Assembly (NCBI GenBank): GCA_034667725.1
Contig: JAXDQS010000010.1
Span: 224,001 to 288,000, forward strand
Direction of reading: 5' to 3'
Length of the DNA: 64,000 bases
Origin: Thermoplasmata archaeon
GTDB lineage: Archaea > Thermoplasmatota > E2 > JACPAO01 > JAHFTW01
The notes beneath the pieces are model-generated. The model made no database searches. It had not been told where the DNA came from and saw only the letters and a program-made list of their open reading frames with translations. The translations under genes and the position numbers were made by a program. This document shows positions 27,772 to 39,379 of this stretch, in pieces. Numbering within the stretch: the first letter of the stretch is position 1; each line of letters starts with the position of its first letter.

Positions 27772-29055
27772 ATGGAGGAGGCGGCGCCCACCGAGAGCCC
27801 CTTGCCGGGCGCCGGCGCCAAGGGCAAGCCGGTGCGCGTCCACCCCTACGCGCTCGAGCTGTCCACGGCCGCCGAGCTGCGCCGCGACCCGCGCATGGTC
27901 ACCCTGTTCTGGGCCGGCCTGGGCACGGCGCTGGTGCTGCTGGGATTGGGGCTCGCCAACCGCTTCAGCCCCTGCCTGAACGGCGTCGGCCCCGAGCCCT
28001 GCGCCACCCCCGCGGCATGGACCAGCTGGGTCCAGCTTCCCCTGTTCGGCGGCCTTGCCCTGCTGGGCTTCGGCTTCGTGCAGCGCCAATGGGCCCGCCG
28101 CGTCACGCTTGCCGGCTGGCTGCTGTTCGGGTTCTACTGGGCGCTCACCGCGCAGGACCTGTTCGTGGCCGAGGGCGGCGACATCGTCAACCTCTGCTTC
28201 GCCATCGTCGGCGTCTACTTCTTCGTCTACCTGGCCTACCACCAATGGCTCTCCGAGGCGCGCGGCATCGAGAACCTCACCGTCCGGTTCCTCAACATCG
28301 CCACCTTCGTCGCCGCCGGCTCCTACTTCGTCATCGACAAGATCGAGCCGGTCCGCAAATGGCTCATCCTCACCGTCAGCCGCCACACCGAATGGATGCT
28401 GGGGCTGTTCGGGCAAGGCGCCGACGCCGGCCTCCGGGCCGTCTACAACCCCGCCGGCAGCACGAGCGACTTCCAGGCCGACCTGGCCCGCTTCTACTAC
28501 GAGGGCCACCTCAACCACTGCCCCTCGCAGCCGAGCGACTGGTTCTCCAGCCTGATGCACTGGGACCCGTTCGCCCGCCAAGCCCTCGACGCCTGCCGCG
28601 ACTTCTCGGCCCACGAGGCCGTCATCGTCCCCGTCTCGATCATCCTGGCCTGCACCGCCCTCCAGTCCATCATGCTGTTCGTCGGCCTGTTCATGGGCAC
28701 CCCGGCCCCATGGAAGCGGCGCCTGCTGGCGTCGGCCATCGTCGCCGCCGTCGTGTACGTCCTCAACCTGCTGCGGAACACCGGCATCGTGTGGTTCTAC
28801 GGCCAAGGCGAGGCCTCGTTCTGGATGATGCACGACGCCGTCGGCAAGGGCGGCAGCCTGGTCGCCATGATCCTCATCGCGTTCGCCGCCTTCGCCTGGT
28901 TCCCCGAGTTCCTCAAGGCGCTCGTCGGCGTGCTGGACCTGCCGCACCGCGACGGCCCCATCGAGCGCACGCTGCGCCTTGGCAGGCGGCGGCCCGACCA
29001 AGGCGCGCCGCCAGCGGAGCCGCCGGCCGAGACGCCGGCACCCCCCGTCCACTGA
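27772..29055 (+). CDS. artA: Archaeosortase A-like protein
   Basis: Multi-TM; VSIILACTALQS (catalytic Cys), LNLLRN, HDAVGKGGSL. Confidence 0.9.
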   Translation: MEEAAPTESPLPGAGAKGKPVRVHPYALELSTAAELRRDPRMVTLFWAGLGTALVLLGLGLANRFSPCLNGVGPEPCATPAAWTSWVQLPLFGGLALLGFGFVQRQWARRVTLAGWLLFGFYWALTAQDLFVAEGGDIVNLCFAIVGVYFFVYLAYHQWLSEARGIENLTVRFLNIATFVAAGSYFVIDKIEPVRKWLILTVSRHTEWMLGLFGQGADAGLRAVYNPAGSTSDFQADLARFYYEGHLNHCPSQPSDWFSSLMHWDPFARQALDACRDFSAHEAVIVPVSIILACTALQSIMLFVGLFMGTPAPWKRRLLASAIVAAVVYVLNLLRNTGIVWFYGQGEASFWMMHDAVGKGGSLVAMILIAFAAFAWFPEFLKALVGVLDLPHRDGPIERTLRLGRRRPDQGAPPAEPPAETPAPPVH

Positions 29056-29113
29056 AGGCGGGGTCGCGCCCGGCCTCCGATTTAATCATTTGCGCTCTGG
29101 GCCAGTGTTGGAC

Positions 29114-37898: not shown

Positions 37899-38534
37899 GT
37901 GGCGCGCTTTGCGCGGGGGTCCGCCCCCTGGCTGCTGGCCCCCGTGACCCTCGCGGTCGTGCTGGTGGCCTACGGTCTGCAGTCGAAGGACGTCTGGCCG
38001 TTCGTCGCCGCGGTCCTGCCGCTCTTGGTGTTCGCGTTCTTCATCGTGTTCTTCCGCGACCCCGACCGCCTGGCCTCGGAAGGCATCGCGAGCCCCGCCG
38101 ACGGCACCGTGAGCTTCATCGACGAGGTGGACGACCCCGACCTCGGCCGGGTCGAGCGCTTCTCGATCTTCATGTCGCCTAAGGACGTCCACGTCAACCG
38201 CTACCCGGTGGACGGCACCGTCGTGTCGGTGCTGCACAAGCCCGGCGGCCACGTGCCCGCCTTCAACAAGGAGGCCGAGCGCAACGAGCGGGTCGAGACC
38301 CTGCTGGCCACCGCCCACGGCCGCGTCAAGGTCATCCAGATCGCCGGCACCGTGGCCCGCCGCATCGTGCCCTACCACAAGGCCGGCGAGGCCGCCGTCA
38401 AGGGCGAGCGCTTCGGCCTCATCCGCCTCGGCTCGCGCTGCGACATCCTGGTCGCGCCCGGCACGGTGCGCTGGACCGTCCCGCCCGGCACCCAGGTCTA
38501 CGCCGGCACCACCAGCCTGGGGGCGTTCAAGTGA
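37899..38534 (+). CDS. psd: Phosphatidylserine/archaetidylserine decarboxylase proenzyme
   Basis: FFRDPDR, SPADG, IFMSPKDVHVNRYP, NERV, QIAG..ARRI, RLGSRCD self-cleavage motif. Confidence 0.95.
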   Translation: MARFARGSAPWLLAPVTLAVVLVAYGLQSKDVWPFVAAVLPLLVFAFFIVFFRDPDRLASEGIASPADGTVSFIDEVDDPDLGRVERFSIFMSPKDVHVNRYPVDGTVVSVLHKPGGHVPAFNKEAERNERVETLLATAHGRVKVIQIAGTVARRIVPYHKAGEAAVKGERFGLIRLGSRCDILVAPGTVRWTVPPGTQVYAGTTSLGAFK

Positions 38535-39379
38535 CCCAGCCGCCGCCCGGCGCCCCTGGCGCCCCCGCCGCGGGCGACGGCGACACCTGGCGCGGCTACT
38601 TCCGCGCCGCCCTGCGCGACGAGTGGGACGGCCTCGACCGCATCAACCGCGACCTCCGGCTGGCGGACCTGTTCACGCTCACCAACGCCCTCATGGGCCT
38701 CGCCGCGCTGCTGCTGATCGCCACCGCGCCCTACGAGGCCCGCTGGGACCGCATCCACCTCGCCATCGAGCTGGTCCTGGTCGGCGTCATCATGGACGGC
38801 GTCGACGGCGCCGTGTCCCGCATGGGCAAAGGCAACGGCCCGCTCGGCGCCGTCCTCGACACGCTCGCCGACGCCTTGACCTTCGTCGCCACCAGCGCCG
38901 TCGTCACCTTCGTCTTCATCGACACCGCCCGCGGCGGCGAGACCGACCCGTTCCTCGACCGCTGGGGCAGCCTGCTCGCCCTCGGCTTCTACGTCGTGTG
39001 CGGCCTGCTGCGCCTGGCCCGCTTCGAGTCGCTCCGGGACACCGGCAAGCCCCGCGACTACTTCTCCGGCATCCCGACGCCCGCCGCCGCCCTCATGCTG
39101 CTGGCCATGGTGCTGGTCGAGTCGCCCGACTGGCTGCTGCTGTCGGCCGCGTTCGTGCTCGGCATCCTCATGACGACCCGCGCCCGCTACCCGAAGATCC
39201 GCGGCTGGATCGCCGTCGGCACCGTCGCCATCCTGCTCGCCATCCTCGTGAGCTTCAGCAACCCCGACTTCCAGGCGTGGCTCGCGCGCGGCCTCCTGGC
39301 CCTCATGGCGCTCTACGTCCTTGCCGGCCCCTTCGTCGTGCTCGCCCGCCACGGCGCCAACTTCCCGGGGTCCCGGTAG
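38531..39379 (+). CDS. pssA: CDP-alcohol phosphatidyltransferase (archaetidylserine synthase)
   Basis: DGVDGAVSR...G..LDTLAD motif, LRLARF, FSGIPTP; overlaps psd by 4 nt. Confidence 0.9.
   Translation: MTQPPPGAPGAPAAGDGDTWRGYFRAALRDEWDGLDRINRDLRLADLFTLTNALMGLAALLLIATAPYEARWDRIHLAIELVLVGVIMDGVDGAVSRMGKGNGPLGAVLDTLADALTFVATSAVVTFVFIDTARGGETDPFLDRWGSLLALGFYVVCGLLRLARFESLRDTGKPRDYFSGIPTPAAALMLLAMVLVESPDWLLLSAAFVLGILMTTRARYPKIRGWIAVGTVAILLAILVSFSNPDFQAWLARGLLALMALYVLAGPFVVLARHGANFPGSR

Follow-up and report, generated by a model that had tools for sequence, protein, structure and literature searches.

An archaeosortase A lipid-anchoring locus interrupted by coupled genes for a giant secreted protein and a lipoprotein in a soil Thermoplasmatota archaeon

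We describe a locus in a soil Thermoplasmatota species in which the known archaeosortase A (ArtA) lipid-anchoring gene set, artA–psd–pssA, appears to have been split by a self-contained module of two genes, one encoding a giant secreted multidomain protein and the other a lipoprotein; we put the probability of this explanation as a whole at about 0.7. The window analysed is a 64-kb stretch (C10:224001-288000) of a 2.3-Mb, 90%-complete metagenome-assembled genome (MAG), labelled G000 here. An earlier, sequence-only reading of this DNA had listed five co-oriented genes, and all five were found on the + strand where it had placed them: artA (27772..29055), the giant gene (29114..36742), the lipobox protein gene (36732..37874), psd (37899..38534) and pssA (38531..39379). 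GC content across the window is 66–78% per 2-kb step (mean ~72%) and, as such GC-rich DNA opens all six frames, genes were called by family matches, G+C content at third codon positions (GC3) and homologues.

Twenty artA loci of relatives within the genus and family were compared by tblastn, with 11 further loci at class level. The genus and family loci share a conserved order, consisting of a divergent btuF-like gene, artA, psd, pssA and a fourth gene, orf503. The artA and psd matches were no more than 170 bp apart in 10 of the 20, and psd directly followed artA in all 11 class-level loci. No homologue of the giant or of the lipoprotein was detected in the artA loci of the 20 genus and family relatives. 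Since artA directly precedes psd in relatives and none of the 20 loci holds a homologue of the cassette, this lineage has acquired the 8.8-kb pair by insertion. Comparison of gene order shows that psd ancestrally came directly after artA; the proposal that artA–psd–pssA is ancestral and the cassette inserted, made from the window alone, was thus borne out (cassette homologues in 0/20 loci).

A Logan contig of 11,273 bp, from the probable source run (a soil metagenome), covers positions 27075-38347 with zero differences, so the junctions are not a binning chimera; this contig derives from the same reads as the MAG and is not independent evidence. Among the contigs of sequencing runs compared at 80% likeness, we saw no evidence of an insert-free variant. 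These comparisons were mostly noise from other GC-rich organisms, and the apparent joints all had sides of 20–39 nt, nearly all of them 20–22 nt.

Members of the giant family were found in 3 of the 38 genomes of the order: G000 itself, G001 (same genus) and G025 (same order, other family). None was found outside the order among 401 genomes sampled across the phylum. A search of 5.8 billion protein clusters revealed three metagenomic giants, P0002 (75% identity overall), P0003 and P0004 (~32%), and the homologues are 2557–2837 aa long; the same search with the lipoprotein returned only itself and its homologue in G025. Scans of metagenome contigs found no relative, and the scan of genome contigs found G025 and G001 only. 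In G025, the gene of a 2.7-kaa giant and that of a lipobox protein, MNRLRSAPWFLAVIAVAGC, overlap at the TGA stop of the former and the TTG start of the latter (L052 15380-15450); this lipobox protein is 26% identical to the lipoprotein of the window over its full length. The artA and psd genes of G025 are adjacent and lie on a different contig from this pair. In G001, artA and psd are likewise adjacent, and the giant, here truncated, has unrelated genes as neighbours on a separate contig. The two cassette genes were therefore together in both of the contexts visible (2/2), as the sequence-only reading had anticipated in asking for their co-occurrence elsewhere, and were linked to artA in this genome only. 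By these comparisons, the two genes are a self-contained unit, conserved and translationally coupled, that elsewhere lies away from artA.

Further genes were seen 3′ of the pair in G025 (L052 16565-19154): one encodes a 448-aa protein with an N-terminal transmembrane (TM) segment and a C-terminal zinc-ribbon-like CxxC..CxxC motif, and after it comes a second lipobox protein (VVSAGC). Neither had a Pfam match or a counterpart in the window. A record of this genome (L054, CAYVGY010000013.1) is titled ‘uncultured Halobacteriales archaeon’, yet it is placed in the same order as the window and shares artA–psd; the title is probably wrong.

The 8.8-kb insert fits exactly between the stop codon of artA and the promoter box of psd, and it carries an AT-rich promoter box of its own. 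TATA-like boxes had been claimed before both the giant gene and psd, and both were seen. That of the giant, GATTTAATCATTTG (29079..29091, + strand), lies ~29 nt before ATG 29114; the 64-kb window has no more than 12 such islands (7/8 A/T or above). That of psd, CTTAAGAG (37871..37878, + strand), is weaker, with the stop codon TAA of the lipoprotein lying inside it, and is backed by its conservation in relatives. The psd open reading frame (ORF) opens at TTG 37878, and the likely leaderless start is GTG 37899, which aligns with the starts of relatives. In these, a psd box (CTTAAGA, CTTAAAA or CTATAAG) stands 27–29 nt before the codon that aligns to GTG 37899, and a TATA-like word (TTAA, TTTA, TATA or TTAG) precedes the aligned start by 18–40 nt, mostly 27–29 nt, in 20 of 26 relatives. 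The box is present also where the junction holds inserts (G008, G012 and G015) and in G004 and G005, whose psd block has been inverted or moved. Because this conserved box lies ~28 nt before the start, psd–pssA–orf503 is probably a separate and leaderless transcription unit, apart from artA. A TCCGTSG-like motif was also observed in most family members, ~10–17 nt before the psd start and between box and start codon; it may be a promoter-proximal or regulatory element.

Of the 20 relatives in the genus and family, about half have an artA|psd junction that is filled or rearranged. The gap is 0.4–0.6 kb in G002, G009 and G014 and 1.1–1.2 kb in G008, G015 and G016; in G012, it spans 3.5 kb and holds a DAO-family FAD oxidoreductase and a GNAT acetyltransferase, and in G010 it is at least 2 kb long and contains a GT87-like glycosyltransferase. 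A small membrane protein is also among the junction contents of relatives, and in G004 and G005 the whole psd–pssA–orf503 block is inverted or relocated, 7–18 kb away. The psd|pssA|orf503 junctions remain tight in the relatives whose artA|psd junction varies. If the artA|psd spacer is the boundary of two transcription units, as the boxes suggest, this would explain why insertions and inversions are found at that junction.

The same pattern, with a junction filled or rearranged in about half of the relatives and tight junctions downstream in the very same genomes, could instead mark the spacer as a true integration hotspot, that is, a site of repeated, site-specific capture of cargo and not of mere tolerance. 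The sequence-only reading had raised a hotspot; the variable junction it looked for is there, but the contents are functionally unrelated to each other across relatives. The repeat search gave only low-identity, GC-rich chance matches and no direct repeats in the flanks, neither tRNA genes nor an integrase or recombinase gene turned up, and the composition of the insert matches that of the host (GC3 0.955–0.983, the same as in the neighbouring genes). A spacer between two promoters accounts for the tolerance without any dedicated mechanism, and we consider a true hotspot unlikely.

The giant is encoded by a single ORF, a 7.6-kb open frame with a GC3 of 0.974, giving 2542 aa from ATG 29114 or 2526 aa from ATG 29162. 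It has an N-terminal signal peptide, and no hydrophobic window was found in its last 2000 residues; the C-terminus reads ...EEFYDVP. From the N-terminus, we could distinguish a Cys-rich helical region that varies between homologues (~aa 28-445), a DxDxDG calcium-type motif (aa 484-496), an FG-GAP-like motif with an invariant VPHFS (aa 880-900; a weak Pfam FG-GAP match, E 3e-4), a propeller-like Trp/Ser-rich region (~aa 905-1215; weak Reg_prop match), a PKD domain (aa 1244-1306; Pfam PKD_4, E 7e-8) and a MAM-like segment (aa 1682-1731; weak InhA-like MAM match), along with further beta-rich stretches that received no assignment. A PDB sequence search with the giant matched the PKD domain only.

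Two details of the N-terminal half are recorded as observations. Residues 1–480 (29162-30600) are built of helical units with Cys pairs (..DC....ACNA..), whose number and sequence differ strongly even from those of P0002; identity to P0002 is 36–48% in aa 1-100 and 40% in aa 251-300. VPHFS (aa 896-900; window 31850-31861) is invariant in six aligned giants despite an overall identity of ~33% and closes the FG-GAP-like motif DxNxDGxxDLVV; its role may be structural, and it need not be an HF|S site of self-cleavage.

The giant ends in a conserved orphan domain (35762..36739, + strand; aa 2201-2526). It aligns in all five family members, where Trp residues, two Asp and a C..RRC motif are invariant, and is 64–82% identical to its counterpart in P0002, similar to the stalk. 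No match to this domain was found in Pfam, PDB or the ESM Atlas, and the only one that HMMER gave among 1.84 billion representatives, an Ig-repeat protein, was spurious; AlphaFold2 run with five sequences gave an unusable model (predicted local distance difference test, pLDDT, 36.7). Before it lies a fast-evolving amphipathic or hydrophobic helical linker (35462..35761, + strand; aa 2101-2200), ~430 residues from the C-terminus, which is 42–50% identical to that of the close orthologue P0002, compared with 75% overall. The segment aligned to it is strongly hydrophobic in G025 and P0003, and we considered whether it might be a true TM helix. This was set aside because the protein of the window is not hydrophobic enough there; it is further disfavoured by the conserved Cys pairs of the domain that follows and by the acidic residues after the segment.

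The partner is a 373-aa protein whose frame overlaps or abuts the giant stop codon and which ends ...DLGNRA. Its signal peptide ends in LLLAGC, in agreement with the lipobox definition [LVI][ASTVI][GAS]C (PMC12462473): the window protein has LAGC and its G025 homologue VAGC, the Cys being residue 19 of both aligned precursors. The canonical start is TTG 36753, and the codon homologous to the G025 start is ACG 36732. We observed that TTG 36753, the only canonical start, yields a signal peptide without a charged n-region and that GGAGGAG at 36718-36724 precedes ACG 36732; going by these features, the lipoprotein may use the non-canonical ACG. It had no family match in Pfam or NCBIfam and no match in PDB, and AlphaFold2 with two sequences gave an unusable model (pLDDT 37.5). 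The protein is predicted to be all-beta, and it is possibly propeller-like, the sole lead being a language-model likeness to PD40 propellers in the ESM Atlas (0.88).

The evolutionary part of the split-locus explanation stands on the gene orders described above; for its functional part, we infer the following model. The position of the 8.8-kb module beside artA would be incidental, and the spacer between the two units would tolerate such insertions. The giant would be an adhesin-like cell-surface protein exported by Sec, with no anchor of its own. The membrane-tethered lipoprotein, which would be lipidated by the lipobox pathway and not by ArtA, probably retains or matures the giant at the cell surface through the C-terminal domain of the latter. 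Like large multidomain adhesin-like surface proteins, the giant combines a Sec signal peptide with PKD_4, FG-GAP-like, propeller-like and MAM-like modules and calcium-type DxDxDG motifs, and its Cys-rich regions fit an extracellular location. It differs from them in having no membrane anchor, S-layer-binding module or sorting signal of its own, and in carrying an orphan C-terminal domain together with an obligatorily coupled lipoprotein partner.

Several points weigh against this explanation. The insert-free relatives at hand are not close enough to define how the insertion took place, and the pairing of giant and lipoprotein was seen in two genomes only. The anchoring and partner role given to the lipoprotein is purely inferred; the models of this protein and of the C-terminal domain were unusable, and neither has a family match. 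The two transcription units are called from sequence motifs only. There is also a weak possibility that placement beside artA was selected in this species.

A bolder functional proposal would make the pair an undescribed two-component surface system of soil Thermoplasmatota, in which the anchorless 2500-aa giant is held, released or neutralised, by way of its conserved orphan C-terminal domain, by a co-evolving, lipid-anchored beta-propeller partner and serves cell–cell contact or competition, its capture at artA in this species coupling expression to envelope biogenesis. We regard this proposal as unlikely.

We also weighed whether the pair is a polymorphic-toxin-like competition system, in which the giant would deliver a C-terminal toxin past a pre-toxin helix and the lipoprotein would act as immunity protein on the outside of the membrane. 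Polymorphic toxins followed by an immunity gene are known with Rhs, CDI or MafB-type architecture. The fit of the giant to this plan is superficial: a long stalk, a helical segment, a terminal domain of ~330–430 aa and a tightly coupled gene directly downstream. The helical linker does evolve fastest between close orthologues, and between G000 and G025 the terminal domain and the lipoprotein are ~21–26% identical, compared with 31–44% for the stalk. However, the terminal domain is homologous in five members and, at 64–82% identity to that of P0002, shows no swap; since it is conserved and not exchanged across the family, it lacks the defining mark of a polymorphic toxin. No known toxin domain or conserved His/Glu-type catalytic set was recognized in the tip, the invariant residues being mainly Trp, Cys, Arg and Gly (plus Pro and two Asp), and the giant has no Rhs, YD or filamentous-haemagglutinin repeats. 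A large exported partner, here a 373-aa secreted all-beta lipoprotein, would be unusual as an immunity protein, and no orphan immunity or toxin cassettes lie downstream. A polymorphic toxin is thus improbable here, and the competition system suggested by the sequence-only reading is unsupported.

The genes that flank the pair contain nothing new: artA–psd–pssA is the already-known ArtA lipid-anchoring gene set. The product of artA matches TIGR04125 at 123.2 bits (cut-off 75), in two stretches owing to a lineage-specific insertion, and its catalytic-type residues C315, R356 and H375 are invariant in 40 aligned relatives. The psd product matches PF02666 at 133.4 bits (cut-off 22) as an archaetidylserine decarboxylase-type protein, and an LGS self-cleavage motif is visible in it; with the sorting-system model NF038088 (anchor_synt_D) it scores 151 against a cut-off of 240. 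On these profile scores, its family membership holds, and the ‘sorting-system’ subtype is below the model cut-off. The pssA start overlaps the psd stop, and its product is a CDP-alcohol phosphatidyltransferase of the archaetidylserine synthase type (PF01066, 46.6 bits) with a visible DxxDGxx[AS]Rx8Gx3Dx3D motif; its best NCBIfam match, TIGR04217 (112.8), and NF038086 (88.8) are both below their cut-offs of 200.

In Haloferax volcanii, PssA and PssD are required for ArtA-dependent processing, and an artA–pssD–pssA gene cluster has been published for Methanosarcina (PMC7157517, Abdul-Halim et al. 2020, citing Haft et al. 2012). The locus described here has the same three families in the same order, the invariant Cys, Arg and His of ArtA, and a genome with many proteins bearing PGF-CTERM-like tails. 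It differs from those systems in that 8.8 kb of inserted genes part artA from psd, a conserved promoter box of its own precedes psd, the scores of psd and pssA are under the ‘protein sorting system’ cut-offs of NCBIfam, no protein of the genome reaches TIGR04126 (PGF-CTERM), and the conserved orf503 follows pssA. Dozens of G000 proteins end in P-[GAH]-x, a hydrophobic helix and RRR, two of them with canonical PGF; examples are C6:53728-56001 and C6:17869-18501 and, in the window, 24978-26939, 11522-15319, 51055-53157 and 57596-60460. TIGR04126 gave two sub-threshold matches in G000, at 18.6 and 18.5 bits (cut-off 24.5). These tails suggest that this lineage uses a degenerate variant of the ArtA sorting signal.

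It remained to be considered whether the giant and the lipoprotein are a dedicated client or accessory of ArtA, placed in the locus through dependence on it. A dedicated exosortase or archaeosortase with a single adjacent substrate is a concept reportedly due to Haft (2012), and the present locus resembles it in that a large secreted protein directly follows a sortase-family gene. The pair is enclosed between artA and psd in this genome, and lipid anchoring of surface proteins would be a common theme. Neither the giant, its homologues nor the lipoprotein, however, has a C-terminal TM segment or a basic, PGF-CTERM-like sorting tail, so the giant is not an ArtA substrate; the sequence-only reading had already judged it no classical substrate for want of a C-terminal TM segment, and with no tripartite signal in the giant or its homologues its alternative of a dedicated client falls. 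The adjacency is not conserved either, as G025 and G001 have an intact artA–psd and the giant elsewhere, and many dispersed candidate ArtA substrates exist in this genome. Archaeal lipobox proteins are lipidated through AliA and AliB, in a different pathway from that of ArtA (PMC12462473). We think it very unlikely that the pair is an ArtA client.

Two further genes lie at the ends of the conserved cluster. The divergent left neighbour of artA (26936..27739, − strand) encodes a TroA/BtuF-like substrate-binding protein (NF038402, 113.7 bits; PF01497) and adjoins artA in most genus and family loci whose sequence reaches upstream of artA. The conserved fourth gene, orf503 (39381..40832, + strand), is directly 3′ of pssA; among the 20 loci of the genus and family, 16 had its tblastn match directly after pssA, and in G005 the match was inverted and ~16 kb downstream. 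Its product had no match in Pfam or NCBIfam.

Within billions of sequences, the pair is a rare orphan family, with six giants and two lipoproteins found, whose conserved C-terminal domain and coupled partner resist both annotation and structure prediction. It is a candidate for work on archaeal surface biology, although nothing so far points to a new mechanism. For the family as a whole, artA and the lipid genes are probably tandem units and not one operon, and genes found at the junction between them are not to be read as ArtA clients.

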